46,793 bases of DNA from positions 1-46,793 of the forward strand of contig CANRDZ010000001.1 of the NCBI GenBank assembly GCA_947629465.1, in the 5' to 3' direction. A program made the translations under genes and the position numbers. Numbering within the stretch: the first letter of the stretch is position 1; each line of letters starts with the position of its first letter. The notes beneath the pieces were generated by a model that saw only the letters and a list, made by a program, of their open reading frames with translations, was not told the origin of the DNA and did not search any database. This stretch comes from an uncultured Bacilli bacterium (GTDB lineage: Bacteria; Bacillota_I; Bacilli_A; RF39; UBA660). Below, piece by piece: positions 5,673-23,813 of the stretch.

Positions 5673-5710
5673 TAAATTTTTATTTTTTATGTTATAATTT
5701 ATTTGTGCTT

Positions 5711-5796: not shown

Positions 5797-5849
5797 GATA
5801 TTGATAGGAAACTCGGACTATTTATAATTCGAGTATGTATAACATAAAG

Positions 5850-5878
5850 ACAACTTGCCAAAAAGTTGTTTTTATTTT
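5850..5878 (+). terminator. Rho-independent terminator after tRNA-Leu
   Basis: Stem acaactt/aagttgt followed by a T-run (tttttatttt). Confidence 0.5.
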
Positions 5879-5981
5879 ACTATGAATAGTATGTCTATTT
5901 TTTGATTAAATTTTTTATAGGCAAATAAATTATTTAACTAAAAAATAATTTTCATAATATATAAAGAAAGGAATATATATT

Positions 5982-6230: not shown

Positions 6231-6266
6231 TTTTTATAAAAGAAAATAATAATAATTTATAATATC

Positions 6267-6297
6267 AAAAAGCTTCAAAACTTTAATTGAAGCTTTT
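6267..6297. terminator. Bidirectional hairpin terminator between convergent genes
   Basis: aaaagcttcaa / ttgaagctttt 11-bp stem with A- and T-runs on either side. It overlaps the sortase stop codon. Confidence 0.55.
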
Positions 6298-6831
6298 CAT
6301 TTGACATATTATTACTAATTGTTTATTTTTTTTATTACTACATGTTGTTAAAACAAGAATATTTTTATAATTTTTATCAATTGTTATTTTGCCATTTTTT
6401 TCTGTTTCATATATATTTATTATATTATAATAATAAATCTTATCTTTGTAATATAGATTAACTTCATCATTTATTTTTAATTTATATAAATTTTTAAAAT
6501 AGGCATTTTTTCCATTACCTGAATGGGACGCTAAAGCAATTATACTATTATCTTCATCAGGCATGATTGAATTTTTTAATAATTTTATATTTTTATTAAC
6601 ATTATTATTTTTGTCATTTAGCGAATAAAATCCTTTTTCTAAATCTATAGCATTAATTTTTAATAATCCTAAATAATTATTATCAGTTTCTTTGATTGTT
6701 TTTATATTTGTTTGAAAGTATCTTTGAACTAATCTTTTTTCTTGAATATTATATAAATAATCATTTAAATAAAAAACTATATTAATAATTAGAAAAATAA
6801 TAAGTAATATTTTAATTTTCTTTTTTTTCAT
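6283..6831 (-). CDS. Sortase-family transpeptidase (atypical: no Arg downstream of the catalytic Cys)
   Basis: N-terminal TM, ALASHSGNG (His), LVLTTCS (TLxTC-like Cys). Overlaps the adhesin gene 3' end by 20 nt. Confidence 0.65.
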   Translation of the reverse strand: MKKKKIKILLIIFLIINIVFYLNDYLYNIQEKRLVQRYFQTNIKTIKETDNNYLGLLKINAIDLEKGFYSLNDKNNNVNKNIKLLKNSIMPDEDNSIIALASHSGNGKNAYFKNLYKLKINDEVNLYYKDKIYYYNIINIYETEKNGKITIDKNYKNILVLTTCSNKKNKQLVIICQMKSFN

Positions 6832-9529
6832 AAAAACATATGCCTAAAATAATCAAAATAAGTAAAACTATCATATTTAAATCATAACTTTTAGTATTAG
6901 GTACATCAAAAGTAAAATCTTTATTTTGAATTGGTTCATTAATTAGTTCTAAATTTATTTCATCATTTTCATTATTTATATCAAAATAAAGTCTTGTATT
7001 ATTTAATAAGTATCCTTCAGGAGCTTCAATTTCTTCTAAAAAATATTTGCCTATTATTAAATTATTTAAAGTAATATTTCCCAATTCATCAGTTTTTCCT
7101 TCATATATTAATGTTGCTTCATTTTCATCAGTTGTATATTTATAAATAGCTATTTTAGCATTTGGTAAAGGACTATTTGAATTATTTTTTTTATTAAAAA
7201 TTAATTTACCTTTTTTTAAATAATTTTTAATATTTATATTTACATTAACAATTTCTGTATATTGATCTTGATAAGATAAATTAATATCATACTTATTTTT
7301 ATCTAATAAATAACCATCGGGAGTTTCTTTTTCTATTAAATAATAATTGCCTAAATATAAATCATTTATTGCTATTTTACCATTTATTGTTTGATAGGTG
7401 TTTATTAAAGTGTCTTTTTTATAAATTAATGTATGATCTCCACTATAAATGTCTTCTTTTGCATATAATTCAAATATAACATTATCTAATGGTATATCAA
7501 GATATGAATATGTATTGTTACCTAGGTTTAATTCTTCTCCTAGTTTTTCAATTATAATATTTCCTTTAACTTCTTTATTTGCAAATTTTAATTCTAAAAT
7601 TGTTCCTAAACCATCAACGTTTTCTAATTTAGAATTTTTACTAATTTCAAATTTTAATGGTTCTTTATTCCATAGATAACCTGTAATTTTTTGATCAATT
7701 TCTTCTAATTGATATATTCCTCCTGTTAATTCATATGGTGTATATAAATAGCCATTAATATCTGTTTCATAAATACAAATATTTTCTAAATTAGGATAAG
7801 TTAATTGTTGACAAACATATTCATTGGTTTTTAGATTTTTAATTTTAAATTTTATTCCTTTTAAAGGAATATTTTTTTTAGTTATAGAATCAATTTTAAT
7901 TATTTTTAATCTTGCTTTTATTAGCTCATTATTGATTACTTTTTCTATATCATTAGATTTAATATTTATTGTAAAACAGGCAGCATTATTAGTAAATTCA
8001 CTTCCTTTAATTTGACAAACTTGATATGTCCCATAGGGTAGAGTTATACTAGCTTTTCCATTTTGATCTGTAATCATTTTACCTATAAGTTTATTATTTT
8101 TAGCTAAATAAATATTAAATTCAGCATTTGGTTCAATTTCAACAATTCCACTTTTGCCATCACCCTCTGTTTTTAATAGAGAAAATTTATATTTAATAAC
8201 TGGTTCTTTTGATAGAACTTTTAAAACTTCATTTTCATGTTGAATAAAAATTGTATACTCTGAATTATCAATTTTATATCCTTCGCTTGGTTTTATTTCT
8301 TTAACTATATATTTTCCATAGGGTAGAAGTATTGATTTTGCATAACCATTTTCATCAGTTATTAATTCTGATATTTTTTCTCCATTCATATTGTAAATAC
8401 CATAAATTGCTCCTTTTAAAGTTGCATCACCTTGAGAAATGTTTCCGGTTTCACTGTCGGTTTTATAAATTTCAATTGTACCTTCAATTAATTTATTGCT
8501 AATATCATATGATATTTTTGGTGTTGAAGAATTTATATTAAAAGAATAAATTTTATCACTTATTTTATAACCTTCAGGACAACTTATTTCTTTCATTGTA
8601 TAACTTCCATAAGTTAAGTTATCACATTTGCCATAACCATATTCATCAGTAGTTATTCTACATACTTCTTCATTGGCTTCATTATATATTCCAAAAACAA
8701 CATTACTAATTTTTTCTCCTTTTTGATTTGTTTTAGTAACTTCTACTTCGCCATAAACAACTTCTAAAAATATATTTACATAAACATTAGTTAGATCAGA
8801 AATACCAAAATAAGCTTGTTTTTGACTACCGTCTGCATAATAAAATTTAGTGTATTTATCAGTATAACTATTATTAACTAAATTAAAAGTTAAATCTTCT
8901 TTTGAATTAAATTTAATATATAAATTATTACCTTCAATTCGACTTTGAGAATTTAATTGATAGAGAATTCTAAAATTAGATAAAACATTATTTTCATCAG
9001 TTAATACTAGCTCTTCACCAACAATAATTTTATGACGAGTTAAATCAAATGAAGGTTTCAGTCCATGTTGATTAATAAGTCTATTTATTTCATCTCTTTC
9101 ATCTTTTAAATCAATAAATTTTCCTCCACCACCAATTTCAGTCCATACTTCATTTTGTTGACCTCCAATAGCTTCCCAAATCATAAGTTGGGTAGCCATT
9201 TTATAACGAAGAGTTTGATGATTTGGATAATCATAGCCATAATAAGCAATTAAATTAATTTTTCTTGTTAATTCTTCATCATAAGGTGAAGTAGTTTCTT
9301 TTAAATAATCAGATTCTTTATTTATGGTAATTCCTGGCTCAATACAATAGGTTGTATCACCATCAATTTTATAAGTATATAATTCTCCAGAATGCGGTTT
9401 ATCATTACCACCTCGACGATAAAAATAATAATCGGTAAAACTTTCGGTTATCTGGTATGCTTTAACTCCATTTGAACAACTAAATAATAAAATAAAAAAT
9501 AAAACAAAAAATAGAAAATTTTTTTTCAT
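6812..9529 (-). CDS. Cell-surface adhesin: N-terminal thioester domain (TED) plus about 6 SpaA/Cna-B-type repeat domains and a C-terminal sorting-like signal
   Basis: Signal peptide. TYCIEPG (thioester Cys) and ATQLMIWEA (TQxxIW Gln). Repeated ...KTD/N..G..L.GA.F.I....G......TD.NG......L.YG.Y...E...P.GY... modules. Tail DVPNTKS + hydrophobic helix + EKKEN. Confidence 0.8.
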   Translation of the reverse strand: MKKNFLFFVLFFILLFSCSNGVKAYQITESFTDYYFYRRGGNDKPHSGELYTYKIDGDTTYCIEPGITINKESDYLKETTSPYDEELTRKINLIAYYGYDYPNHQTLRYKMATQLMIWEAIGGQQNEVWTEIGGGGKFIDLKDERDEINRLINQHGLKPSFDLTRHKIIVGEELVLTDENNVLSNFRILYQLNSQSRIEGNNLYIKFNSKEDLTFNLVNNSYTDKYTKFYYADGSQKQAYFGISDLTNVYVNIFLEVVYGEVEVTKTNQKGEKISNVVFGIYNEANEEVCRITTDEYGYGKCDNLTYGSYTMKEISCPEGYKISDKIYSFNINSSTPKISYDISNKLIEGTIEIYKTDSETGNISQGDATLKGAIYGIYNMNGEKISELITDENGYAKSILLPYGKYIVKEIKPSEGYKIDNSEYTIFIQHENEVLKVLSKEPVIKYKFSLLKTEGDGKSGIVEIEPNAEFNIYLAKNNKLIGKMITDQNGKASITLPYGTYQVCQIKGSEFTNNAACFTINIKSNDIEKVINNELIKARLKIIKIDSITKKNIPLKGIKFKIKNLKTNEYVCQQLTYPNLENICIYETDINGYLYTPYELTGGIYQLEEIDQKITGYLWNKEPLKFEISKNSKLENVDGLGTILELKFANKEVKGNIIIEKLGEELNLGNNTYSYLDIPLDNVIFELYAKEDIYSGDHTLIYKKDTLINTYQTINGKIAINDLYLGNYYLIEKETPDGYLLDKNKYDINLSYQDQYTEIVNVNINIKNYLKKGKLIFNKKNNSNSPLPNAKIAIYKYTTDENEATLIYEGKTDELGNITLNNLIIGKYFLEEIEAPEGYLLNNTRLYFDINNENDEINLELINEPIQNKDFTFDVPNTKSYDLNMIVLLILIILGICFYEKKEN

Positions 9530-9560
9530 ATTTTTCCTCCTTCTAAATATATATATCGCT

Positions 9561-9617
9561 TAAAAAAAGCAATTTCCTTTTAAAAAATTAAATTTTTTAA
9601 GTAAAAAAAGCAATTTC
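9561..9617 (+). repeat. Two 16-bp direct repeats (taaaaaaagcaatttc) 41 bp apart in the divergent adhesin/clpC-like intergenic region
   Basis: Identical 16-mers at 9561..9576 and 9602..9617. Confidence 0.6.
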
Positions 9618-9696
9618 TTTGCGAATTTTATAGAGATTTTGCATATTTTTTTCCTAAAAAAAACATTATTAACATAGAATTGTAAGGGAGAATAAT

Positions 9697-11811
9697 ATGT
9701 TTAATAATTTTGGTATAGTAGGAGCAAATTTATTTAAAAAGGCCGAAGCTTTAAGATGTGAGTTACATCATCCTTATGTTGGAACTGAACATTTACTTTT
9801 AGCAATATTGGCAAATGATAAAGAAATGAGTCTTTATTTAAAAGAATATGGTCTTACTTTTGAACGATTTAAAAAAGAATTAATTTTAGTTGTTGGAAAT
9901 GGGACAAAGTCAAGTGATATAAATTTATATACGCCAATGCTTAAAAGAGTTATTAATACAGCTTTAGAAAATGCTAAAGAAAATAATAATGGAATTGTAA
10001 CTGCTAAACATTTAATTATTTCAATTTTAGAAGAAGGAGAAGGAATAGCTATTCGACTTTTAGTAAGTATGGGCATAGATATTGATGAAATATATGAAAA
10101 TTTAAATAAAAATAATAAATTAGTTAATAAAAAATTAGAGATTTATCAAACAGGAAATATATTAAATGATTTAGTCGATGATAATGAAACTGTGGTTGGT
10201 AGAGATAAAGAAATAAATTTAATAATTGAAACTCTTTTAAGAAAGAAAAAAAATAATCCTCTTTTAATTGGTGATGCAGGAGTTGGTAAAACAGCAATTA
10301 TTGAAGAATTAGTAAGAAGAATTAAAAGAAAAGAAGTACCAGAATTTTTATTTGATGCTAAAGTTGTTTCTTTAGAAATGGGTTCTTTAGTATCAGGGAC
10401 AAAATATCGAGGTGAATTTGAAGAAAAACTAACTAAAATAATAAAAGAACTTGAAACCGAAGATAAAATTATTTTATTTATAGATGAAATTCATGCGATG
10501 GTAAGTGCCGGAGGAGCAGAAGGGGCAATTACTGCTGGGGATATATTTAAACCAGCTTTAGCAAGAGGAAAAATTAAATGTATTGGGGCTACTACTTGTG
10601 AAGAATTTAATAAATTTTTTTCTGGTGATAAAGCTTTAATGAGAAGATTTGAAGTTATTAATATTAAAGAACCTAATAATTTAGAAACTAAAAATATTTT
10701 AGAAAAAGTTAAAGGTGAATATGAAAAACATCATAATGTTATAATTCCAGATAATATCCTTGATTTAATTATAAAATATACTGATCGATTTATAAAAAAT
10801 AAAAAGAATCCAGATAAAGCGATTGATTTTTTAGATTCAGTTTGTTCTAAAGTAAAAAATGAAAGTAATTATAATGAAGAAAAAAAGAAATTATATGAAA
10901 AAATTGAAGAATTAAAAATAAAGAAAAATGAATATGTAAAAAGTAATGATTATGATAATGCTTTAAATACATATAGTGAAGAATTATTAATTAGTAAAAA
11001 ATTAAAAGGTTATTTTAAAAATAAAAAATTAATTGTTAAAGAACAAGATGTAATTAAAGTTTTAGAAAATAAAACAGGAATGATTTTTACAAAAGATAAA
11101 TTAAATTTTTTAAATAATATAGAATTAGATATTAATAATATTTTATATAATTCAAGTAAATATATAAAAAGAATTAATAATTTAATTAAAGAAAATTTAA
11201 TTAATAAAAAAGGATTTTTAAAAATTTATTTAGAAGGTGGCATTGGTCTTGGAAAAAGTACAATAGCTAAAAAATATGGAACAAGTATTCCTAATGCTAA
11301 TTTTATTAGAATTGATTTAAAAGAGTATAAGACAATTTATGATATAAATAAACTTATTGGAACTACTCAAGGTTATATAGGATATAATGATGAACATTTA
11401 TTTACTAAATTAAAAAATAATAATTTTAATATTATATTATTTGATAATTATAGTGAAGCTCATGGAAATATTAAAGATTTAATAAAAGAAATATTAAAAG
11501 AAGGATATATTACTGATAATAAAGGGGAAAAAATATATTTTAATAATTCATTTATTTTTATTACAGATGATATAAGTTCAAATAAAAAAATTGGCTTTGC
11601 AAATAATAATTATGAAAATTATAATGAAATAGAAGATTTAGTTGATGGTGTAATAAAATTTGAAAGTTTAAATAAAGAAACATTAGTAAATTATTTAGAT
11701 AGTAAAAAAGTTTATAATAAAGATGAAATAATTGCTAACAGTAATTATGAAAAAGTAAATTATAAAAATTTAGATAAATTAATTAAAGAAAATAAATTAA
11801 TTAATAATTAA
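9697..11811 (+). CDS. ClpC-like AAA+ chaperone with a degenerate second nucleotide-binding module
   Basis: Clp_N repeats (HPYVGTEHLLLAIL; TAKHLIISILEEGEGIAIRLL). Canonical D1 (GDAGVGKTAI, ILFIDEIH, RRFE). D2 keeps GGIGLGKS, but Walker B reads ILFDNYSEAH and the C-terminal small domain is short (704 aa in total). Confidence 0.8.
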   Translation: MFNNFGIVGANLFKKAEALRCELHHPYVGTEHLLLAILANDKEMSLYLKEYGLTFERFKKELILVVGNGTKSSDINLYTPMLKRVINTALENAKENNNGIVTAKHLIISILEEGEGIAIRLLVSMGIDIDEIYENLNKNNKLVNKKLEIYQTGNILNDLVDDNETVVGRDKEINLIIETLLRKKKNNPLLIGDAGVGKTAIIEELVRRIKRKEVPEFLFDAKVVSLEMGSLVSGTKYRGEFEEKLTKIIKELETEDKIILFIDEIHAMVSAGGAEGAITAGDIFKPALARGKIKCIGATTCEEFNKFFSGDKALMRRFEVINIKEPNNLETKNILEKVKGEYEKHHNVIIPDNILDLIIKYTDRFIKNKKNPDKAIDFLDSVCSKVKNESNYNEEKKKLYEKIEELKIKKNEYVKSNDYDNALNTYSEELLISKKLKGYFKNKKLIVKEQDVIKVLENKTGMIFTKDKLNFLNNIELDINNILYNSSKYIKRINNLIKENLINKKGFLKIYLEGGIGLGKSTIAKKYGTSIPNANFIRIDLKEYKTIYDINKLIGTTQGYIGYNDEHLFTKLKNNNFNIILFDNYSEAHGNIKDLIKEILKEGYITDNKGEKIYFNNSFIFITDDISSNKKIGFANNNYENYNEIEDLVDGVIKFESLNKETLVNYLDSKKVYNKDEIIANSNYEKVNYKNLDKLIKENKLINN

Positions 11812-11903: not shown

Positions 11904-14465
11904 TTATATTTCTATTTTTATACCATTTCTTTTTATAATTAATTTTCTTATAAAATCAATAGGAATTACACTAAATGCTATAATAATTACAAATATTAAT
12001 TCAAATAAAGTCATACCATAGGTTCTAAATAATTCATGGCCATTATATATTAAAAATATTTGGGCTATTGTTATAAAAGAAAATATTATTATAAATACTT
12101 TATTTTTAAATATATTAGATAAAATATTTAATCTTTCAGTACGAGCATTAAAAGCATTAAAGATACCAATAAAAATAAATAATGCAAAATAAGAAGTCAT
12201 AAAGTGTTTATAATCACTTCTTATAAACTCTTTTATAATTGGTAGTTTTAAAAATAATATACAAATTAAAGCAGAATATATTGAATTAATTATTATTTGG
12301 GAATACATATATTTATTAATAATAGGTTCATCTTTCTTCTTTGGTAATTGAGCCATATAATATTTTAAAGGTGCTTCATAAGAAAAGGCTAGTCCTGAAA
12401 AAGTATCCATAATCATATTCAACCATAACATTTGAATAATAGTAATAGGAGTACTTACACCAATATAAGAACCAATGATTGATAAAAATAGAGCAGTCAT
12501 ATTAACTGTTAATTGATAAGTAACAAATCTTCTAATGCTTTTAAAGATGGTTCTACCATATAAAATAGCTTTACTTATTGATAAAATATTATTATCTAAT
12601 ATTACTATATCACTAGCTTCTTTGGCTACTTCTGTTCCACTTCCCATTGCAAATCCTACATTTGCTTTTTTTAAAGCTGGAGCATCATTTACTCCATCAC
12701 CAGTCATTCCAACAACATAATTCATACTCTCTAATATTGAAACTAATCGACTTTTATCTTTTGGGTAAGCTCGAGCAACAACTTTTAACCTGTGAATCAC
12801 TTTTTTAATATCTTCTTCATCCATTTTATTTAATTCATCGCTTGTTAAGATTAAATCTTTATCATTATCAATGATCCCACAATCTTTTGCTATATTTTTA
12901 GCTGTATCTTTAGCATCACCAGTAATCATTATAATATTAATACCAGCTTTTTTAATTAAATCTATTCCTTCTTTAGCTTCTTTTCTTAATTCATCTTTCA
13001 ATGTTATAAATCCTAAAAAAGTTAAATTATTATTTAAATTATTGCCTTTTGCAAGTGTTATTACTCGAAAGCCTTTTTTAGTATATTTATCTATTTCTCT
13101 AAAAATTAATTTATTATTTAAGATTATTTTTTCTTCACCTAAAGTATTTAAATATTTGCTACATTTTGGAATTATTACTTCACTTGCACCTTTTAAATAA
13201 ATTGTATCATTTAAATAAATTGCACTATATTTAATTTCACTATCAAAAGGTATTCTTTTAGTTATAGTTTTATTTTCTTTTTTAGGTTTTAAAAATTGAA
13301 TTAATGCTTTATCTGTTGAATTTCCCCCAATGACATTACCTTTACTTATAATACTTTCATTATTCATTATAATAGCATCATATATTGTCTCAAATATTTT
13401 AGTTCTTTTTAATTCTTCTTCTTTTTTATAGGTTTTTAAATCACCTGAAATATAATTGGTAACTTCTAAAATACCTTTGGTTAATGTTCCTGTTTTATCT
13501 GTAAGTAAGTAATTAATATTACCACTTGTTTCAATTCCTGTTGGTTTTCTTACTAATACATTATCTTTAAGCATTCTTTTCATATTGGATGATAATACTA
13601 AAGTAATCATCATAGGTAGACCTTCGGGAACGGCAACTATAATTATAGTTACAGATAAAGTTAAAGCGTAAATTAAATAATTTAATATAATTTTTGGAGT
13701 AGAAATAGTTGCTATAATTAAATCTAAATTAAAATTATTGGCTATAACAATTTTATTAAAAAGATATGAAAGTGAAACAACAAAAGCCCCAATATAACCA
13801 ATTTTACTAATTATTTTAGCCAAACCATATAATCTTAATTTAAGAGTAGAAGGAGGATCATCTTGTTGAATTTCAAGGGATATTTTACCATATTCAGTAT
13901 TATTTCCAACTGCTTTAACTATCATCTTTCCATTACCATTAGTAACAACGGATCCTCGATATAATTTACTATTATTAATTTTTTTTATATCTTTTGATTC
14001 CCCAGTAAGAGCAGATTCATTACATGATATTGATCCGTTAATTAAAATTCCATCGGCTGGAATGCTATCTCCAGAGGAAATATTTACGATATCACCAACA
14101 ACTATTTCATTTATTTCAACTTCAACTAAAGTATTATTTCTTAATACTTTAACTTTAATTTTACTAGCTTCATCTTGTAATCTTTTAAATGCTTCTTCAC
14201 TACCATATTCTGAAAGAGTAGAAATCATGGATGCAAGCATAACGGCAACTGCTATACCAATTGTTTCATACCAGTCATATTTAGAAAAGATGAAAAGAAC
14301 TTTAATACATAAGGCTATAAGAAGAATTTTAATGATTGGATCTCCTAATGAACTAATTAATATTTTAAAAAATGTTTTTTTCTTTACTTTAGTTAATTCA
14401 TTATTACCATATTTTTTACGACTATCTAATACTTCTTCATCATTAAGACCATTATAATTTATCAT
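11904..14465 (-). CDS. Calcium-translocating P-type ATPase (type II, PMCA/SERCA-like)
   Basis: DKTGTLT phosphorylation site, TGES, VAVPEGLP in TM4, MTGDGVNDAPALKKANVGFAMG hinge. 853 aa with about 10 TM helices. Confidence 0.85.
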   Translation of the reverse strand: MINYNGLNDEEVLDSRKKYGNNELTKVKKKTFFKILISSLGDPIIKILLIALCIKVLFIFSKYDWYETIGIAVAVMLASMISTLSEYGSEEAFKRLQDEASKIKVKVLRNNTLVEVEINEIVVGDIVNISSGDSIPADGILINGSISCNESALTGESKDIKKINNSKLYRGSVVTNGNGKMIVKAVGNNTEYGKISLEIQQDDPPSTLKLRLYGLAKIISKIGYIGAFVVSLSYLFNKIVIANNFNLDLIIATISTPKIILNYLIYALTLSVTIIIVAVPEGLPMMITLVLSSNMKRMLKDNVLVRKPTGIETSGNINYLLTDKTGTLTKGILEVTNYISGDLKTYKKEEELKRTKIFETIYDAIIMNNESIISKGNVIGGNSTDKALIQFLKPKKENKTITKRIPFDSEIKYSAIYLNDTIYLKGASEVIIPKCSKYLNTLGEEKIILNNKLIFREIDKYTKKGFRVITLAKGNNLNNNLTFLGFITLKDELRKEAKEGIDLIKKAGINIIMITGDAKDTAKNIAKDCGIIDNDKDLILTSDELNKMDEEDIKKVIHRLKVVARAYPKDKSRLVSILESMNYVVGMTGDGVNDAPALKKANVGFAMGSGTEVAKEASDIVILDNNILSISKAILYGRTIFKSIRRFVTYQLTVNMTALFLSIIGSYIGVSTPITIIQMLWLNMIMDTFSGLAFSYEAPLKYYMAQLPKKKDEPIINKYMYSQIIINSIYSALICILFLKLPIIKEFIRSDYKHFMTSYFALFIFIGIFNAFNARTERLNILSNIFKNKVFIIIFSFITIAQIFLIYNGHELFRTYGMTLFELIFVIIIAFSVIPIDFIRKLIIKRNGIKIEI

Positions 14466-14595
14466 TATTTATTAGCTCACCCATTTAAATATATGGAAAA
14501 AAGCATAAAATAAGACCATATAATATATGTTAAATTTTAAAATATGTTCCTATAATTTATTCATTAAATAAAAAAGAAAGTTTAAATAAATTTAT

Positions 14596-15108
14596 TTAAT
14601 TACTTTCTTCAATAAAATTTTTGGATTTATGTGGTTCATCAAATAATAGATTAGGATAATTTTGTTGACGTAAGGCTTCATATAAAACAATAGCAACAGT
14701 ATTAGATAAATTTAAGGCTCTTACATCACTAGTCATTGGTATTCTTAAACATCTATCAATATATGGTTTTAAGATTTTAGGAGGTATACCCGTTGATTCT
14801 TTTCCAAAGAAAAAATAAATGTTTTTTGAAGTGTCACTATAATCAAAAGTAGTATGAGGTTTATGACCATAACGAGTTAAAAAATAATATTCACCTTTAT
14901 TTTTTTGAAAGAATTCATCGATATTTTCATAAACAGTATATTTACATTTATCAATATAATTAACGCCACTTCGTCTTACATATTTATCATCTAAACTAAA
15001 ACCTAATGGTTTAATTAAATGAAGATGAGTATTAGTAGCAATACAAGTGCGCATAATATTGCCAGTATTAGTAGGAATTTCTGGCTCAAATAATACGACA
15101 TTTAACAT
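14596..15108 (-). CDS. trmL: tRNA (cytidine/uridine-2'-O-)-methyltransferase TrmL (SpoU family)
   Basis: MLNVVLFEPEIPTNTGNIMRTC N-terminus, LNLSNTVAIVLYEALRQ C-terminal knot motif. Start moved to the ATG at 15108 (family-typical N-terminus). Confidence 0.8.
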   Translation of the reverse strand: MLNVVLFEPEIPTNTGNIMRTCIATNTHLHLIKPLGFSLDDKYVRRSGVNYIDKCKYTVYENIDEFFQKNKGEYYFLTRYGHKPHTTFDYSDTSKNIYFFFGKESTGIPPKILKPYIDRCLRIPMTSDVRALNLSNTVAIVLYEALRQQNYPNLLFDEPHKSKNFIEESN

Positions 15109-18171: not shown

Positions 18172-18201
18172 GCAAAAGCATATAAGACATTTAAATTATC
18201 T

Positions 18202-18209
18202 CATACATT
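18202..18209 (+). promoter_or_regulatory. Mother-cell sigma (sigma-E/sigma-K type) -10-like element CATACATT upstream of the cotJ operon
   Basis: catacatt lies 23 nt upstream of the cotJ start, after a gcatata element at 18178..18184. B. subtilis cotJ is sigma-E dependent. In AT-rich DNA this match is weak evidence. Confidence 0.3.
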
Positions 18210-18231: not shown

Positions 18232-18705
18232 ATGCTATTTGATAATAACGATTTGGATTTTGCTCTTTTTAATTTATCTACCCCAAAAAGTATGCCAATG
18301 AATATGTCTATGAATATGACAAATATGTTTGATAAAAGTAATTTAAACATTTTATCAGCTAAAGAAGGATTTTTAAGAGGAAACATGTTTAAAGATGAAT
18401 ATAAACCATATAAAAATTTAACTTATATTGATATTAAACCTAGAAATGATAGAGAAGCAAAATTATTTAATGTAATGCAATATTCATTTGCAATAAATGA
18501 TATGAATTTATATTTAGATTTACATCCTGATGATATGGAAGCTATGGCATTATTTGAAGAATTTGTAAAAGAAGCTAAAGAAGCTAAAAAAGAATATATG
18601 GAACAATATGGACCATTAACTGTAACTAAAACTAAAGGTAATAAATTTAATTGGATAGATAATCCATGGCCTTGGGATGATTTAGGAGGTAATATATATG
18701 TTTAA
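18232..18705 (+). CDS. cotJB: Spore coat-associated protein CotJB with an N-terminal CotJA-like extension
   Basis: FAINDMNLYLDLHPDDMEAMALF and C-terminal NPWPWD are CotJB hallmarks. The N-terminal AKEGFLRGNMFKDEYKPY resembles the CotJA AL.KGT.W.DLY..Y motif. The stop overlaps the cotJC start (ATGTTTAA). Confidence 0.7.
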   Translation: MLFDNNDLDFALFNLSTPKSMPMNMSMNMTNMFDKSNLNILSAKEGFLRGNMFKDEYKPYKNLTYIDIKPRNDREAKLFNVMQYSFAINDMNLYLDLHPDDMEAMALFEEFVKEAKEAKKEYMEQYGPLTVTKTKGNKFNWIDNPWPWDDLGGNIYV

Positions 18706-18795
18706 ATATGTAAAACACACTAATTATCCAATAAATATATCTAAAAAAGATTTAAGAATGGCAAAATATTTGATCACTCAATTTGGTGGTGCTAA
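18698..18795 (+). CDS. cotJC: cotJC 5' segment (codons 1-32 plus two bases of codon 33), interrupted by the intervening element
   Basis: MFKYVKHTNYPINISKKDLRMAKYLITQFGGA matches the CotJC N-terminus (B. subtilis ...AKYLIEQYGGADGELAAALRY...). As it stands the frame runs into element DNA and stops at 18839..18841. Confidence 0.85.
18782..18795 (+). repeat. attL core: 14-bp direct repeat tttggtggtgctaa
   Basis: Identical 14-mer at 22983..22996. Both copies encode F-G-G-A of CotJC in frame. Confidence 0.85.
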
Positions 18796-18796
18796 A

Positions 18797-18808
18797 TGTA
18801 AAAGCGAT
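18797..18808 (+). repeat. Left element arm tgtaaaagcgat (inverted repeat of 22970..22981)
   Basis: Perfect 12-bp reverse complement of atcgcttttaca at 22970..22981. Each arm lies 1 nt from the core. Confidence 0.8.
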
Positions 18809-18815
18809 GTTTTTT

Positions 18816-20258
18816 TTATTCTTTGTAATAAATTTCGATAGTTTCATTTTTTTTGTCATAAACAATGTAATCAATTAATTCATGAATTACGGTATATTTT
18901 TTCATCATATCTATTTTTTCATCAATTAATAATTCATATACATTTTTAGCATTTATAGAAATGTTTTGTTCTTTAATTGTTTCATTATCTTTAGGCAATT
19001 TATTAATTTTTTCATTAATTTCTTTAATATTTTTTTCGGTTTGCAATTTGTTTTCTTTATATTCTTCTAATGTGTCAATTCCTTCTAAATATAAATTTTT
19101 ATATCTTACTAATTTTTCTTGTAAAATTTTTAAATTATTTTTTAAAATTTCTTTTTCATCTAAAAGATTATTTTCTATTTTTTTCTTACTAAAATTAATA
19201 TTAATAGGATTTTTATAATCTTTTTGAATTTGATTCAATATTGCTGGTATAATTTTTGAATAACTAATATAATGACTTTCTTCACAGCTACCATGAGAAT
19301 AACCTATACATTGAAGAGCATTTTTTTGTGTAGTTAGAGTAGATCCACAATTACTACATTTCACTAATTTACTAATCCAACTAAAGTTGCTAGTTGAAGT
19401 TGATTTATATAAATCCTTTTTCTTTAAAATTTGAGCTTGTATTTTATCAAATATTGCTTCATCAATTAAAGCTTCATGGTTTCCTTTTTTTAATATTCCG
19501 TTTTTTTCTTTAAATTTATAATCCCAACTTGATTTAGAGTTAGGTGTCCATAGAGTATAACCTTTATATACCGGATTTCTTAATATGTATTCAATTGTTC
19601 TTACTTCCCATTTATTATTATGAGTTGTTCTAATTCCTAAATTATTTAATTTTCTAGCAATTTCTTTAAAGCTAATTCCATTTTGATAATTATTAAATAT
19701 CATTTTTACTATTTTAGATGTCTCTTGATCAACGATTAATTGTTTATCGACCATTTTATAACCAAAAGGTGCTTTTGTTTGATATTCGCCTCTATTTGCC
19801 TTTTCAACCATGCCTTTTTTTACTTCGTCAGATAAGTTAAGAGAATAGTATTCGGCCATTGCTTCTAACATTGCCTCTAAAATAACAGAAAATTTATCAT
19901 CACCAAAATCTTCAGTAATAGATATTACTTCAACTTTACATTCTCTTTTAAGTAGTGATTTATAAACTATACTATCTTCACGGTTTCTTGCAAATCTATC
20001 TAATTTATGTACTAAAATAACATTAAATGGAGAAGTAGGTTTTATTTTTGCTGTAGCAATCATTTCCATAAATGCTGGCCTTTTTTCTGCTTTGCGACCA
20101 CTAAACCCTTCATCTTTATAAATGTATTTGGGATCTATTTCAATATTATTTTTTTTAGCATATTCTTTTATCGCTTTTAATTGTGCGTCAGGAGAGTATT
20201 CTGTTTGAGAATCTGTACTGACACGAATATATACTGCAGCAATTCTTTCTTCTTTCAT
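18816..20258 (-). CDS. Large serine recombinase (SpoIVCA/SprA-like)
   Basis: Resolvase catalytic domain AAVYIRVSTDSQ ... LVHKLDRFARN, recombinase domain, zinc ribbon CSNCGS...C..YSHGSC, C-terminal coiled coil. 480 aa. Confidence 0.9.
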   Translation of the reverse strand: MKEERIAAVYIRVSTDSQTEYSPDAQLKAIKEYAKKNNIEIDPKYIYKDEGFSGRKAEKRPAFMEMIATAKIKPTSPFNVILVHKLDRFARNREDSIVYKSLLKRECKVEVISITEDFGDDKFSVILEAMLEAMAEYYSLNLSDEVKKGMVEKANRGEYQTKAPFGYKMVDKQLIVDQETSKIVKMIFNNYQNGISFKEIARKLNNLGIRTTHNNKWEVRTIEYILRNPVYKGYTLWTPNSKSSWDYKFKEKNGILKKGNHEALIDEAIFDKIQAQILKKKDLYKSTSTSNFSWISKLVKCSNCGSTLTTQKNALQCIGYSHGSCEESHYISYSKIIPAILNQIQKDYKNPININFSKKKIENNLLDEKEILKNNLKILQEKLVRYKNLYLEGIDTLEEYKENKLQTEKNIKEINEKINKLPKDNETIKEQNISINAKNVYELLIDEKIDMMKKYTVIHELIDYIVYDKKNETIEIYYKE

Positions 20259-20287
20259 AAATTTCCTTTCTTTTAATTAAATTTTAT

Positions 20288-20320
20288 GCTACAATATATA
20301 CGAAAACCTATATATGTAGC
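20288..20320. promoter_or_regulatory. Imperfect palindrome gctacaatatata-N8-tatatatgtagc just upstream of the recombinase start
   Basis: 13/12-nt arms with one bulge. Overlaps an extended -10-like TGcTACAAT on the plus strand (20287..20295). Confidence 0.4.
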
Positions 20321-20369
20321 AATTTAATATATGCTATTTAAAAATTCGTTTAGTTTGGGTTTTCACTTA

Positions 20370-20404
20370 CCTCTATTCTGTTCTAGCAGAGTAGAGGATT
20401 TTTT
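20370..20404 (+). terminator. Plus-strand Rho-independent terminator with no annotated plus-strand gene upstream
   Basis: 11-bp stem cctctattctg/cagagtagagg, 6-nt loop, then attttttatt. The minus-strand version has no U-tract. Confidence 0.6.
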
Positions 20405-20422
20405 ATTATATGTGTTAAATAC

Positions 20423-20450
20423 TTGACTAATAAATGTATTTTTTTATAAT
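20423..20450 (+). promoter_or_regulatory. Near-consensus sigma-A promoter TTGACT-16-TATAAT facing the 3' end of the Abi gene
   Basis: -35 at 20423..20428, -10 at 20445..20450. The predicted start near 20457 lies just upstream of hairpin copy 2. Confidence 0.5.
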
Positions 20451-20456
20451 AATTTT

Positions 20457-20506
20457 GCATAATATTTAATGATCCTAAGTATCCCGTGTGGACTTAGGAC
20501 ATTTTT
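20457..20506 (+). ncRNA. Candidate small hairpin RNA, copy 2 (stem UCCUAAGU/ACUUAGGA, loop AUCCCGUGUGG, U5)
   Basis: Hairpin at 20473..20499 followed by cattttt. Same-sense duplicate of the hairpin in the Abi leader. Overlaps the Abi stop codon on the opposite strand. Confidence 0.4.
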
Positions 20507-21450
20507 GATATATCGTGCCAATTTGTTGGGAAATTCATAGCATTTAATACATCATTTAAGGATATAGTATGTAGTTTTGATTGTATACTCATCATTCTAC
20601 TAAATAATTTGTGATGAAATTTATCATAATCTTCTTTAGGTAATAGTAATTTTAACGTAATTACGACAGCGAATAAATCATTTTTCCCAATTTCATATCT
20701 TCCATTATCAATTGGCAAATTCATCATTTGATGATATTTAGTGTCATTTATACTAGTGTAGGTTGGAAATTTATAATTATATAGTCTTTCATCATGCGCA
20801 CACAGATTTCTGGTTTTAGTTAAAATATTCAATAAACTATATAAATCTGCTTCATTAATATTTAATTCAATGGCTATTTTTGTTCTTTCACGTTGTTTCA
20901 TTAACCTATAAAAATTACAAATATCACCAAAGGATAATATATTAACTAATACCCATAAAGGAACGAAGCCGTAATTTATTATGTAATGATTGATATATTT
21001 GTTTTCAATATTGCTTGCTATATTTTTATTTATATTGCCTATTAAAGATTGAATATATTTAATATTTTTTTGTTTAGTATCATTATTTACGTTAACGTTT
21101 TCAAATGTTTCAAAATTATTCAATTTTAAATAATTATCATTTCCATATTGTTCGGAAAAGTAATATGCAATTAAAGCACGTAATGAATTTTCAAATTTTA
21201 AAATATATTCTAAAAATATATTTCTTAATTGCCTATCAAATTCATAAAGAGCATATATTTCATTAAAATTTGTTCCAAATTTGTAAATACTAGAATCTTG
21301 CTCATCTAAAAATAAATCTTTATATCCATTTATGATGTTGTAATAATTATTATGCAATAATATTTTTTTTGCTTCTTCCTCGTTTTCGAATATTATATTT
21401 CTTGATTTTAGTAAATTTATTTGCTCATCTATATCTTTAAATTCTTTCAT
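20494..21450 (-). CDS. Abi_2 family (AbiD/AbiF-like) abortive-infection protein, HEPN-type Rx4H motif
   Basis: N-terminus MKEFKDIDEQINLLKSRNIIF, NYYNIINGYKD, FGDICNFYRL, TRNLCAHDERLYNYKF (RNLCAH). The track ORF extends to a TTG at 21513, but the family N-terminus supports the ATG at 21450. Confidence 0.85.
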   Translation of the reverse strand: MKEFKDIDEQINLLKSRNIIFENEEEAKKILLHNNYYNIINGYKDLFLDEQDSSIYKFGTNFNEIYALYEFDRQLRNIFLEYILKFENSLRALIAYYFSEQYGNDNYLKLNNFETFENVNVNNDTKQKNIKYIQSLIGNINKNIASNIENKYINHYIINYGFVPLWVLVNILSFGDICNFYRLMKQRERTKIAIELNINEADLYSLLNILTKTRNLCAHDERLYNYKFPTYTSINDTKYHQMMNLPIDNGRYEIGKNDLFAVVITLKLLLPKEDYDKFHHKLFSRMMSIQSKLHTISLNDVLNAMNFPTNWHDISKMS

Positions 21451-21456
21451 AATAAT

Positions 21457-21498
21457 AAAAAAGTCTTCAGTCCACACGGGATACTGAAGATCACTTAC
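21457..21498 (-). ncRNA. Candidate small hairpin RNA / leader terminator, copy 1 (stem UCUUCAGU/ACUGAAGA, loop AUCCCGUGUGG, U6)
   Basis: Hairpin at 21464..21490, followed on the minus strand by cUUUUUUAUUAUU and then the Abi ATG. It lies directly downstream of the promoter at 21505..21533. Confidence 0.45.
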
Positions 21499-21504
21499 AA
21501 AGTA

Positions 21505-21533
21505 ATAATACAACTAATTTATGTGATTGTCAA
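21505..21533 (-). promoter_or_regulatory. Near-consensus sigma-A promoter TTGACA-17-TATTAT driving the hairpin leader and the Abi gene
   Basis: Minus strand: -35 at 21533..21528, -10 at 21510..21505. Confidence 0.5.
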
Positions 21534-21694
21534 TATCCAATTTTGATTTTCAAATTTACGTCATTTTGACATTTAGACTTTATTTTTTCACTCCTTTCAA
21601 ATACCGGAAAAAAATCCGTTTTTTTTCTTGTATTCATAGAATACTCGAAATTATTTCTTGTATTTTATGAATGATGGAAATGTTTTTCTCAATT

Positions 21695-22384
21695 TTACAA
21701 TCTTGTCCTCTTTTCTTTAGCAATACCAATAATTTTAACTGGTAAATTTGCTATTTGTTCTTTATTGTAAAAAGTTGGTAAGTATTTATCTTGATTATTT
21801 AAATTTAGGGGTATAAGAGTTATTCCAGATTCATTTATTGTTACATTTTTAAAAGTAGCATCAAAACCATTTACCATAACAGCACAGTCTTTATTATTTG
21901 CTTTTTCATAATCATTAACTTGTTCGAAAATAACAATATCATTTTCTTCATATTTTGGTGCCATGCTGTCTCCACTTATTTTTAAACCATAAAATTGTTT
22001 ACCACCTTTTAACCATTCTTTTGGTATATCTATATATTCTAATATATCTTGTTGAGCTTCAATAGCAATACCTGCTTTAATAGTTCCTAAAACAGGTATT
22101 TGTATAGTTTCATTAGTTGAAACAAGTTGAGTAGCATTATCAAAGTTTAAATCTTCAATTTTAACATCACCCGATTGTATAAGTAAATCGTTTATTGACA
22201 TTCCCATAGCGTTTGCAATTTTTTTTAATGTATCAACTGTAACTCTAACTGGTTTGCCTGTTCTAGGATCATAGCCTTTTTCAATGCTATCCAAATGAGT
22301 ATGGCTAATATCGCATTTTTTGGCAAAGTCTCTTAATGACATATTTCCACGAAATTTTTTGATATATTCACCTATATAATTCAA
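21695..22384 (-). CDS. CI/LexA-type repressor: XRE helix-turn-helix plus S24 self-cleaving peptidase domain
   Basis: MSLRDFAKKCDISHTHLDSIEKG (HTH). LKISGDSMAPKY (Ser nucleophile) and a downstream Lys (ATFKNV). TTG start preceded by GGGAGG at 8-nt spacing. Confidence 0.85.
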   Translation of the reverse strand: MNYIGEYIKKFRGNMSLRDFAKKCDISHTHLDSIEKGYDPRTGKPVRVTVDTLKKIANAMGMSINDLLIQSGDVKIEDLNFDNATQLVSTNETIQIPVLGTIKAGIAIEAQQDILEYIDIPKEWLKGGKQFYGLKISGDSMAPKYEENDIVIFEQVNDYEKANNKDCAVMVNGFDATFKNVTINESGITLIPLNLNNQDKYLPTFYNKEQIANLPVKIIGIAKEKRTRL

Positions 22385-22411
22385 ATAATATTCCTCCCTT
22401 TTTCATTAATT

Positions 22412-22440
22412 ATTGTAATTTATAATTTACAAAAAATCAA
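22412..22440 (-). promoter_or_regulatory. Putative repressor promoter TTGATT-17-TACAAT overlapping the palindromic operator TTGTAAtttataatTTACAA (22413..22432)
   Basis: Minus strand: -35 at 22440..22435, -10 at 22417..22412. 20-bp imperfect palindrome. A related half-site ttgtaaattat at 22457..22467. Confidence 0.4.
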
Positions 22441-22469
22441 TAATTTTAAATACTTTTTGTAAATTATGC

Positions 22470-22498
22470 TTGACATTAATTTTAAGTAAAAATAATCA
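22470..22498 (+). promoter_or_regulatory. Putative divergent promoter (perfect -35 TTGACA, weak -10 TAATCA) next to the operator half-site
   Basis: TTGACA at 22470..22475. The best -10 at 17-nt spacing is poor, so support is limited. Confidence 0.3.
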
Positions 22499-22686
22499 AT
22501 TAAAATTCAGGCATTTACTTAAAGACCAGATTAACCTCTTTTACTTTTTTATATTTTAAAATACTATTTAAACAAATTTTTCTATTTTTCATCTAGTTCT
22601 CAAATATGTGTCTTTATAAATCTACTAGAATTAGATAATAACTCAAATTAAACAAAAAACATAAGCTAATATAGGAGTTGAAACTC

Positions 22687-22797
22687 ATGGAATGTAAAAA
22701 AGAATTAAAAGTAATAGTTCATAATCCAGTTACCGAAGAAAAAGCATCAAAAAAAATAAGAGATATATGTGAATTATTAAAAAATATGGAGACTTAA
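22687..22797 (+). CDS. 36-aa micro-ORF (MECKKELKVIVHNPVTEEKASKKIRDICELLKNMET), candidate recombination directionality factor or relic
   Basis: AGGAG at 22673..22677, 9 nt before the ATG. The only RBS-supported plus-strand ORF in the element. Confidence 0.3.
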   Translation: MECKKELKVIVHNPVTEEKASKKIRDICELLKNMET

Positions 22798-22921
22798 TAG
22801 TATCAACTACATATTATACTATTACTGATTTAGATGGTGATAGAGAGTATATCAGCAAATAGAAATGATAAAATGTTTGTGTGGGCTTCTATGAATACAA
22901 AAAATATTAAATTATATAAAT

Positions 22922-22954
22922 AAGGTAGGGAAATAATTTCTACCTTGTTTTTTT
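22922..22954 (+). terminator. Rho-independent terminator just inside the right end of the element
   Basis: aaggtag...ctacctt stem with inner extension, followed by gtttttttatttg. Confidence 0.6.
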
Positions 22955-22969
22955 ATTTGAATTTTTACT

Positions 22970-22981
22970 ATCGCTTTTACA
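22970..22981 (+). repeat. Right element arm atcgcttttaca (inverted repeat of 18797..18808)
   Basis: Perfect 12-bp reverse complement of the left arm. Confidence 0.8.
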
Positions 22982-22982
22982 C

Positions 22983-23456
22983 TTTGGTGGTGCTAATGGC
23001 GAACTTGCAGCAGCAATGCGTTATTTTAGTCAAAAATTTACAATGCCTGATGATAAAGGTAAAGCCTTACTTAATGATATAGCTACAGAAGAACTTGGTC
23101 ATTGTGAAATGATTTGTTCAATGGTACATCAATTAACCAAAAATGCTACTATTAAAGAACTTGAAGAAGTAGGTCTAGCTTCATATTATGCTGATCATAA
23201 TAAAGGTATATATCCTATTGATGCAAGTGGAGTTCCTTTTACAGCAACATATTTTGCAGTTACAGCTGATCCAATTGCTGATTTAATGGAAGATATGGCA
23301 GCTGAACAAAAAGCTAGGGCAGTATATGAAAATTTAATTGATTTAACTGATGATGAAGATGTTTTAGCACCATTATTATTCTTAAGACAAAGAGAAGTTG
23401 TGCATTTTAATCGTTTTAAAGAATTATATGAATACTATAAAACAAAAGGATATTAA
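22983..23456 (+). CDS. cotJC: cotJC 3' segment (manganese-catalase-family spore coat protein), begins with the attR core
   Basis: In frame: FGGANGELAAAMRYFSQKFTMPD..TEELGHCEMI..GVPFTA..DPIADL..MAAEQKARAVYE..LLFLRQREVVHFNRF, colinear with B. subtilis CotJC. There is no start codon or RBS of its own at the junction. Confidence 0.9.
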   Translation, partial: FGGANGELAAAMRYFSQKFTMPDDKGKALLNDIATEELGHCEMICSMVHQLTKNATIKELEEVGLASYYADHNKGIYPIDASGVPFTATYFAVTADPIADLMEDMAAEQKARAVYENLIDLTDDEDVLAPLLFLRQREVVHFNRFKELYEYYKTKGY

Positions 23457-23463
23457 ATAAATT

Positions 23464-23488
23464 GAACTATCAAATGATAGTTCTTTTT
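23464..23488 (+). terminator. cotJ operon terminator
   Basis: gaactatc/gatagttc 8-bp stem, 4-nt loop, T5. Confidence 0.6.
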
Positions 23489-23585
23489 GTATAATCTTGT
23501 CAAAATTTTAAAAAAAATTTTTTTAAATAATTATAATTTTAATGTTTTTTGGTATAATTACGTTAGAAAGTAGGAAAATAATAGT

Positions 23586-23813
23586 ATGGAAAATAAAGTG
23601 ATAATTAATAAATATGAAAATTATAAGAATCGTCCCAAACTAAAAAAAGAAGATGAAAAAACTCCTATTAAAAGAAGAAATCAATATGAAGAAGATTTAG
23701 AAAAAATTGAAAAAAGAGAAATATCTGAAAATGAAGCAGTAATGTGGGGATTTGTTTTAGGCTTTCTTTTATTTTTAATCCTTTTTATTTTTATTATCAT
23801 ATTTACCATTTAA
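23586..23813 (+). CDS. Small hypothetical membrane protein
   Basis: 75 aa. Lys/Glu-rich N-terminus and one C-terminal TM helix. AGGAAA RBS. Confidence 0.35.
   Translation: MENKVIINKYENYKNRPKLKKEDEKTPIKRRNQYEEDLEKIEKREISENEAVMWGFVLGFLLFLILFIFIIIFTI

Follow-up and report, generated by a model that had tools for sequence, protein, structure and literature searches.

Intervening elements are known from several sporulation genes, namely skin in sigK, SPbeta in spsM, vfbin in spoVFB, vrin in spoVR, gin in gerE and yin in yabG. Recombination of attL with attR by a large serine recombinase (LSR) requires a recombination directionality factor (RDF) (PMC5025042). In the skin element of C. difficile the proven RDF is CD1234, a protein of 72 amino acids (aa) whose gene is transcribed, in a sigma-E/SpoIIID-dependent manner, from a start only 14 bp ahead of its start codon; the recombinase is expressed constitutively (PMC5025042). 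The gin element in gerE of B. cereus pairs the LSR GirC with a tiny, motif-less RDF of 42 aa, GirX, and has a short overlap at both junctions (PMC5595907). Here we describe an element of 4.2 kb that splits the spore-coat gene cotJC of an uncultured Bacilli bacterium (assembly GCA_947629465.1, contig CANRDZ010000001.1); the whole stretch analyzed, positions 1 to 46,793 of that contig, is referred to as the window. A first-pass annotation of the window had left it open whether cotJC is a reported target, which it is: Galperin et al. 2022 named a skin-like element in cotJC of Laceyella sacchari, and Kohm et al. cite Abe et al. 2013 (Mol Microbiol) for cotJC, gerE, yaaH and yhbH as frequent integration sites. 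Because the class is established and cotJC has already been named as a target, the locus is not a new kind of system.

The reading that we favor, with moderate confidence, is that the element is a reduced temperate-phage remnant lodged in cotJC, and that its excision, most likely in the sporulating mother cell, restores the gene. The structural side of this reading, a skin-like arrangement, had been proposed by the first-pass annotation and is borne out: an LSR element sits in frame in a coat gene between two intact att sites, and its removal in silico makes the gene whole again. The parts of the split gene and the att sites are as follows.

18698..18795, plus strand: 5′ segment of cotJC, codons 1-32, ending ...TQFGGA and 100% colinear with intact 185-aa orthologs.
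18796..22996, no strand: intervening element of 4,201 bp, the boundaries of which are free to slide within a 14-bp core.
22997..23456, plus strand: 3′ segment of cotJC, codons 33-185 and the stop codon (Pfam Mn_catalase, E 5e-38), used for the in-silico join.
18782..18808, no strand: attL, with the core TTTGGTGGTGCTAA at 18782-18795 and the element-side arm TGTAAAAGCGAT at 18797-18808.
22970..22996, no strand: attR, with the element-side arm ATCGCTTTTACA at 22970-22981 and the core TTTGGTGGTGCTAA at 22983-22996.
attB of the restored gene: TCACTCAATTTGGTGGTGCTAATGGCGAACTT, with the junction …GATCACTCAATTTGGTGGTGCTAATGGCGAACTTGC….
attP of the excised circle: junction ATCGCTTTTACACTTTGGTGGTGCTAAATGTAAAAGCGAT.

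The 5′ open reading frame (ORF) of cotJC occupies 18698..18841 and encodes 47 aa; its ATG overlaps the stop codon of the upstream CotJB ORF (18232..18705). It reads MFKYVKHTNYPINISKKDLRMAKYLITQFGGA (...AKYLITQFGGA) to 18795, continues through 15 unrelated codons and stops at 18841. The cotJC frame is taken up again at 22983 (DNA TTTGGTGGTGCTAATGGCGAACTT..., protein FGGANGELAAAMRYFSQKF...) without a change of phase and continues to the stop codon at 23454-23456. Joining 18698-18795 to 22997-23456 in silico yields an open 185-aa CotJC that is split at codon 32. Every statement that had been made about this sequence, from the cotJC coordinates and phase to the 185-aa product of deleting 18796..22996, holds. 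No second copy of cotJC was found within the window. The insert has a GC content of 24.2%, as compared with 24.3% for the whole window.

A repeat finder returned the direct repeat CA[A/C]TTTGGTGGTGCTAA at 18779-18795 and 22980-22996, with a start-to-start distance of 4201 bp, and the inverted repeat AAATGTAAAAGCGAT / ATCGCTTTTACACTT just inside the ends of the element. When attP is rebuilt from the two junctions it reads ATCGCTTTTACA-C-TTTGGTGGTGCTAA-A-TGTAAAAGCGAT, a perfect inverted repeat of 12 bp that flanks a 16-bp center, as expected of an LSR attP. The center of symmetry is the GG of the second glycine codon, and because it falls there we predict the crossover dinucleotide to be the GG at 18788-18789 in attL and 22989-22990 in attR. 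By inspection, a distant clade member (L094) has an attP centered on the same position. The 14-bp core at both junctions, together with the in-silico join to 185 aa, provides overlap sequences that would permit a precise, ORF-restoring excision.

Within the element, four features bear directly on the favored reading.

18816..20258, minus strand: large serine recombinase (integrase) of 480 aa, 20 bp from the left junction (attL).
21695..22384, minus strand: CI/LexA-like repressor of 229 aa (HTH_3 and Peptidase_S24 by Pfam; PHROG 4 'transcriptional repressor', E 1e-27).
22385..22686, no strand: divergent control region, with an inverted repeat at 22408-22481, the motif AACTCAAATTAAAC at 22640-22653, the box CATAAGCTA at 22660-22668 (sigma-K-type pattern CATAnnnTA) and the ribosome-binding site (RBS) AGGAG at 22673-22677.
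22687..22797, plus strand: conserved 36-aa ORF MECKKELKVIVHNPVTEEKASKKIRDICELLKNMET, a candidate RDF gene, 186 bp from attR and with a good RBS.

The recombinase is the large serine recombinase that had been placed beside one junction in the earlier annotation. Its Pfam domains Resolvase (PF00239) and Recombinase (PF07508) score above their cut-offs; Zn_ribbon_recom (PF13408) scores 24.5 vs a cut-off of 25.3, and this domain is present in homologs. The protein matches PHROG 95 'integrase' (E 1e-107), the catalytic domain matches the TP901-1 integrase in PDB, and the catalytic residues R12, S14, D87, R88 and R91 are invariant across 27 homologs. The 4.2 kb encode this LSR, an AbiD-family protein, the repressor and the small ORF; no structural, packaging, lysis or replication genes were found in them. 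The cargo had been described as a defense gene, which fits AbiD (PADLOC, E 9e-65) but is not the whole of it, as the element also carries the integrase, the repressor and the candidate RDF gene.

The first-pass annotation had called for a search of related genomes for an uninterrupted cotJC and for the same element at the same codon, and both are found. More than 100 uninterrupted homologs of the rejoined protein exist, nearly all of them exactly 185 aa long and 83-96% identical. In one related genome (L088, GCA_947628375.1) cotJC is free of the insert and represents the empty attB, in a neighborhood of the same order, SpoU-FtsK-DUF6568-CotJB-CotJC-orf74-DUF2179-RimP-NusA. Homologs of the LSR number in the thousands, and the nearest occupy the same cotJC site. 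These include a prophage-like element with an LSR 79% identical to that of the window (L004/L010), which encodes ERF, SSB, DnaB_C, DUF1351 and a helix-turn-helix (HTH)/M78 (Cro/CI) lysogeny module, and an element of more than 10 kb (L009; LSR 93% identical) with MazF-like, CI-like, Cro-like and DnaD-like genes. The window repressor shares 91% DNA identity with part of the L009 prophage repressor. In a third case (L008; LSR also 93% identical) the site holds a mini-element of 3,715 bp with the same LSR and small ORF, other cargo and no repressor. About 25 viral contigs in IMG/VR (25-50 kb) encode members of the LSR clade, and several of these have a palindromic attP with a GGxGGxCC core directly past the integrase stop codon. 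Because prophage-like relatives sit at the same site and viral contigs carry integrases of this clade, the window element is, judged from its genes and relatives, a deletion derivative of a temperate phage that kept the lysogeny module and one early gene.

Four mini-elements are fully delimited: that of the window (4.2 kb), that of L008 (3.7 kb), one in Massilimicrobiota timonensis f30 (L023; 6,796 bp, within 1434395-1455822 of NZ_AP031415) and the first-site element of a Defluviitaleaceae genome (L048; 4.0 kb). Excision in silico restores a full-length CotJC in each of the latter three. The small ORF and the LSR are the only genes common to all four, and the comparison points to convergent reduction to these two genes.

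Non-phage elements were also observed, in L175 (8066-10690) and L023 (4733-6843), where the small ORF lies directly against the 3′ fragment of cotJC and a tyrosine integrase gene is nearby; L175 also encodes a type IV secretion system (T4SS) coupling protein. Because these two elements are non-phage, the same cotJC site is used not by phages alone but also by elements resembling integrative and conjugative elements (ICEs) or integrative and mobilizable elements (IMEs).

We then scanned the LSR clade with one genome per species, giving 80 loci that were searched for CotJC and CotJB. A cotJC fragment lies less than 200 bp from the LSR stop codon in 53-54 of the 80 species loci. Both orientations occur: in 28-32 loci the 5′ fragment is antisense to the LSR, as in the window, and in 21 loci the 3′ fragment is on the LSR strand. 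The break in cotJC is always at residues ~28-33, in the FGGA/YGGP codons. Carriers include Clostridia, Lachnospiraceae, Oscillospiraceae, Defluviitaleaceae, Massilimicrobiota, Petroclostridium, Anaerosolibacter, Erysipelotrichaceae and uncultured Bacilli or 'Tenericutes', and the elements span the range from full prophages to mini-elements of 3.7-6.8 kb. Among the remaining loci are several free attP forms and a few in which the LSR lies beside a different gene.

Some loci have more than one insertion. In the Defluviitaleaceae metagenome-assembled genome (MAG) of L048 (WRBD01000010, 6983-15187), cotJC is in three pieces (aa 1-32, 26-136 and 133-183), split by two separate mini-elements, each with an LSR of its own; identity between these two LSRs is only 22%. 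The DMAAEQKAR motif is the insertion site of the second LSR (517 aa, 13413..14966), which is associated with separate inverted-repeat arms of 14 bp, AAATTTTGTCTTTA. In other loci there is yet another hotspot, the third, which lies at aa ~60-65 in the TEELGH region; multiple insertions or hotspots also occur in L034, L074, L058 and L061. In all, two or three independent LSR elements reside in one cotJC in L048, L034 and L074. Because distinct breaks fall at residues ~28-33, at DMAAEQKAR and in the TEELGH region, cotJC has, as judged from these breakpoints, no fewer than three sites of LSR insertion, each of them close to a highly conserved motif.

A subgroup of the LSR clade adjoins another truncated gene (L080, Anaerocolumna sedimenticola NZ_CP048000, 11467-12522, minus strand; L049, L059 and L085). 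In L080 this is a 351-aa ORF ending ...RQPILTQYCDGRNVTCPGWM, in which CarboxypepD_reg is sub-threshold (E 3e-4, 21.4 bits vs a cut-off of 32.3). The truncated gene represents another attB.

We then compared substitution rates, as the ratio of nonsynonymous to synonymous changes (dN/dS), between the window and L008, where cotJC is also split; one comparison, as named, is with the intact copy of L088.

cotJC 5′ half: dN/dS 0.058.
cotJC 3′ half: dN/dS 0.064.
cotJC against the intact L088 copy: dN/dS 0.056.
LSR: dN/dS 0.076.

For the small ORF, dN/dS is 0.08-0.14. Thus both halves of cotJC, the LSR and the small ORF are under strong purifying selection. The first-pass annotation had named decay of the split copy in relatives, together with an intact second cotJC elsewhere, as a sign of a dead insertion, and no decay was seen: no cotJC fragment has a frameshift or stop in any locus (~54 species), and all three pieces of the triple-split cotJC of L048 are open and conserved. 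For the age of the insertion, the dS of the LSR is 0.52, vs 0.52-0.58 for the neighboring host genes cotJB, DUF6568 and nusA, and identity of the LSR tracks that of the host FtsK (LSR/FtsK pairs of 99.6/94.9, 92.5/84.6 and 79.2/74.7%). This fits long co-residence or co-divergence, and independent insertions by co-diverging phages are possible. Recent horizontal transfer of the element between species was considered and is unsupported, given the agreement of LSR dS with host-gene dS and the tracking of FtsK.

The genes upstream of the split belong to the cotJ operon.

18180..18209, plus strand: candidate sigma-E-type promoter of the cotJ operon (ATATAA, a 16-nt spacer and CATACATT), with the -10 box 5 nt before the RBS.
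18232..18705, plus strand: cotJB, an apparent cotJA-cotJB fusion of 157 aa (Pfam CotJB, E 1e-26, residues 78-149).

The CATACA.T box and the AGGAGG that follows are invariant across six related genomes. We take the CATACATT box to be of the sigma-E type from the B. subtilis consensus, and by analogy with B. subtilis cotJ we would expect cotJC to be expressed in the mother cell. The N-terminal half of the CotJB ORF aligns with the CotJA motif region of an L048 protein that has both Pfam domains (CotJA and CotJB), and because of this alignment cotJA and cotJB appear to form a single fused gene in these lineages. The window also contains a SpoIIP homolog (43425-44348, plus strand; Pfam E 1.5e-46). 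Because SpoIIP is encoded here, this uncultured rabbit-gut lineage of Bacilli, with a GC content of 24%, keeps engulfment machinery and is probably a spore former.

If the LSR is to excise the element it would need a cofactor, and the candidate is the 36-aa ORF near attR. Its aligned homologs differ mostly at third-codon positions, and it is kept in all close elements. A profile search from the alignment collected a family of 177 members of 30-88 aa, all without annotation. The ORF was detected in 19 of the 80 genome loci and 6 of 26 viral loci of the LSR clade (25/106) and in none of 53 loci with distant LSRs, and it is always on the strand opposite the LSR. When the search was started from the small ORF instead of the LSR, the ORF proved to follow closely after cro in the early operon of full phages with this LSR; in reduced or ICE-like elements its immediate neighbor is the 3′ fragment of cotJC.

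The upstream region of the ORF is also conserved. A motif, AACCCAAA..AAAC, is found in front of the LSR gene as well as the small ORF, and its two copies covary within each element. The pattern CATAnnnTA, 4 nt before the RBS of the small ORF, is present in 8 of 17 homologs vs 3.9% of control genes (p = 2e-6; p = 0.002 with close relatives collapsed). The conserved block begins exactly at the -35/-10-like motif, even where the sequence farther upstream is unrelated, and the invariant CATACATT of cotJ has the same position relative to its RBS as CATAnnnTA has in front of the small ORF. We regard the case for the 36-aa ORF as an RDF gene as suggestive, not conclusive. A SpoIIID site was also considered: ACAA[AG] is enriched upstream of small-ORF homologs (13/17 vs 17% of controls), but since its spacing to the -10-like box varies (2-9 nt) we do not call it one.

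A separate observation on the small ORF comes from a prophage in an ENA assembly (L172; ERZ28645793 scaffold_67, 5356-10123), where it is identical to that of a cotJC-integrated prophage (L171). The LSR of L172 has 53% identity to the window LSR, the same level as that of L171, and adjoins a hydrolase gene, not cotJC. Either the target has changed or the junction went unrecognized.

We propose the following course of events. The phage serine integrase has its attB in the conserved FGGA/YGGP codons of cotJC. In growing cells and in the forespore the element would stay integrated, leaving cotJC split and nonfunctional. Expression of the small ORF, most likely in the sporulating mother cell and from a short-leader, mother-cell-type promoter like that of cotJ, would switch a constitutively available LSR to its excision mode, attL x attR. 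Crossover at the GG of the second glycine codon, inside the core TTTGGTGGTGCTAA, would then release a 4.2-kb circle with attP and restore an intact 185-aa cotJC behind its sigma-E-type promoter. The mother cell dies, and because excision would be confined to this terminal cell the spore would still inherit the element. That the excision would be developmental is suggested by the precedent elements, by the purifying selection and by the mother-cell-type -10 motif before the small ORF.

More tentatively, as an extension that we lean slightly against, the 36-aa ORF may found a new RDF family, paired with pan-Firmicutes, cotJC-specialized phage serine integrases that were repeatedly reduced to domesticated mother-cell switches of 4-7 kb with defense or toxin cargo, cotJC being a multi-site hotspot for three LSR lineages. 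If the multi-site hotspot reading is true, some genomes must excise two or three elements in one developmental window for one coat protein.

Several observations weigh against the mother-cell mechanism. The small ORF has no PHROG match and no consistent Pfam match among 17 members, about three quarters of the clade loci lack a detectable homolog of it, and its role as an RDF is proposed by association. The -10-like motif is short and AT-rich in a genome of 24% GC, its distance to the upstream ACAA box varies, and its conservation may stem partly from shared descent. A degenerate attP pattern found no match in IMG/VR viral contigs or in JGI metagenome contigs, the latter a set that probably does not include the ENA rabbit samples. 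An intact CotJC 100% identical to the rejoined protein was not found among 5.8 billion protein clusters, the best being 96%. The site is empty in L088, and L008 was reduced only after its split from L009; if insertions were independent and recent, the low dN/dS could predate them, and for this reason the selection data are no proof of excision. The CI-like S24 repressor adjoins the small ORF, an arrangement that fits ordinary SOS-type prophage control equally well. Finally, B. subtilis cotJ mutants have mild phenotypes, so loss of cotJC might simply be tolerated.

The last two points lead to the strongest competing explanation, an ordinary prophage remnant of the SOS type. Such an element would excise upon cleavage of the S24 repressor, with no developmental link, and its carriers would lack CotJC, the metal-ligand codons of cotJC serving as a conserved, dispensable landing site. 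We consider this less likely than the favored reading. In its favor, the HTH and S24 repressor is divergent to the small ORF, the small ORF belongs to the Cro-side early operon in full phages, and the clade consists of true phage integrases for which free attP forms exist. The presence of two or three LSR elements in one cotJC (L048, L034 and L074) is also easier to account for by tolerated disruption than by coordinated excision. Tolerated disruption, however, sits poorly with two intact halves of cotJC at a dN/dS of 0.06 in lineages that carry the split, with ~54 species free of frameshifts and stops in their fragments, and with three open, conserved pieces in L048. L008 has no repressor and nonetheless retains the LSR and small ORF, and it is exactly at the -35/-10-like motif that conservation in front of the small ORF sets in.

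A dead, fixed insertion, in which the element is past excising and cotJC is a pseudogene in this lineage, is improbable. It would explain why the split allele alone was seen in the MAG and in three metagenome assemblies, why the protein database holds no 100%-identical intact allele and why most phage genes are lost. However, the LSR is full length, has all of its catalytic residues and evolves at a dN/dS of 0.076; the arms of the att sites make up a perfect inverted repeat of 12 bp; neither the small ORF nor either half of cotJC is interrupted, and all three are conserved; and the cotJ promoter and cotJB are intact and conserved. The selection, the undecayed fragments, the conserved cotJ promoter and SpoIIP therefore all disfavor a dead insertion. 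Mis-assembly of a chimeric contig that joined a mobile element to cotJC, conceivable for a MAG, can be dismissed because the left junction (cotJB-cotJC 5′-recombinase-AbiD) was recovered in three further, independent metagenome assemblies from ENA (L001-L003), the 14-bp core and complementary arms are common to the two junctions, and sister species and cultured bacteria with complete genomes display the same architecture (L008; L023, NZ_AP031415).

Returning to the element with mother-cell excision as the favored reading, its remaining features are listed here.

20259..20404, minus strand: conserved region upstream of the LSR gene, defined by a five-element alignment, with the palindrome GCTACATATATA...TATATATTGTAGC, the motif AACCCAAACTAAAC at 20348-20361 and a hairpin at 20370-20397.
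20494..21450, minus strand: AbiD-family abortive-infection gene (Abi_2), carried as cargo (Pfam Abi_2 PF07751, E 1e-47).
22918..22950, plus strand: intrinsic terminator after the small ORF, just inside attR, with a hairpin at the equivalent position in L008.

A defense role is predicted for AbiD from its matches to PADLOC AbiD (E 9e-65) and PHROG 2158 (E 3e-74). Hairpins at 20473-20499 (plus strand) and 21464-21490 (minus strand) bracket the gene. They share an identical 11-nt loop, ATCCCGTGTGG, and their 8-bp stems differ in a mutually compensating manner (TCCTAAGT/ACTTAGGA vs TCTTCAGT/ACTGAAGA). The 17-mer AGTATCCCGTGTGGACT has two sites in the window, both in the AbiD hairpins (0.02 expected by chance), and elsewhere occurs only in the identical contigs L001 and L002. 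The hairpin-bracketed AbiD block (about 20404-21693) corresponds exactly to what L008 and L009, two related elements, lack, and this coincidence suggests a cassette-like insertion or exchange.

The conserved hairpin at 20370-20397 (plus strand), upstream of the LSR gene, was scored as an intrinsic terminator for the plus strand. We speculate that transcription reading through from the cotJ promoter would cross the LSR gene from end to end in antisense and stop at this hairpin, and that it could constitute antisense control of the recombinase. Intrinsic terminators were enriched in our scan (4 vs 1.0 expected). The same scan returned 37 sigma-70 promoter sites vs 43.7 expected from shuffles, which is uninformative because the DNA is AT-rich, and no Rfam family matched within 18500-23600.

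Gene-intervening elements illustrate how selfish DNA can be wired into a developmental program. With an integrase, a candidate cofactor, a repressor and one defense gene in 4.2 kb, the window element is a near-minimal example that shows which parts are indispensable. For one integrase clade, cotJC is a major recurrent landing site, in both orientations and with up to three elements per gene. If the 36-aa protein is an excision cofactor, it would belong to a very small new RDF family that, together with a defined LSR/att pair, may be of use in genome engineering. Massilimicrobiota timonensis f30, which is cultured and has a complete genome with a 6.8-kb relative of the element, offers a testable system. 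Annotation pipelines will label the split cotJC a pseudogene and so understate coat gene content.

Of the described systems, skinCd (CD1231 and CD1234) is similar in that the LSR gene flanks a junction within a sporulation gene of the mother cell, another part of the element encodes a very small orphan accessory protein, and the element is a prophage remnant. The short-leader mother-cell promoter of CD1234 also resembles the position of CATAnnnTA before the 36-aa ORF. It differs in target and size (sigK and 14.6 kb, against cotJC and 4.2 kb in an uncultured low-GC Bacilli lineage), and its excision and RDF function are proven, whereas ours are predicted from sequence. The 36-aa ORF has no detectable similarity to characterized Pfam or PHROG proteins, a comparison that did not include CD1234 directly.

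SPbeta in spsM (SprA/SprB) likewise has a phage LSR whose attB falls within a gene for the envelope or coat that is expressed in the mother cell. Among the relatives of the window element, too, there are complete or near-complete prophages that occupy the same site, and dual control by stress and sporulation is possible. SPbeta, however, is an active phage of 134 kb with a different target gene, while the window element has lost all structural and lysis genes. The LSRs are unrelated beyond the family level; the 25 best-ranked phage records, of which the best is 43% identical, do not include SPbeta. The gin element shares with ours the absence of phage structural genes, the combination of an LSR with a tiny RDF (a candidate here) and the short junction overlap. 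It is 28.6 kb long, has three recombinases and was described as non-prophage, in contrast to 4.2 kb, one LSR and a phage lysogeny module in the window element.

The closest precedents by target are the earlier cotJC cases, Laceyella sacchari and the survey of Abe et al. as cited by Kohm et al., which concern skin-like, phage- or transposon-related elements in the same gene. They are one-line survey remarks on another taxon, in which we found no mention of att sites, of a candidate RDF, of a clade-level analysis or of data on excision. To judge from the searchable literature, what this locus adds to them is a very small size together with AbiD cargo, defined att sites, the breadth of a single integrase clade devoted to these codons in both orientations, and a candidate RDF family.

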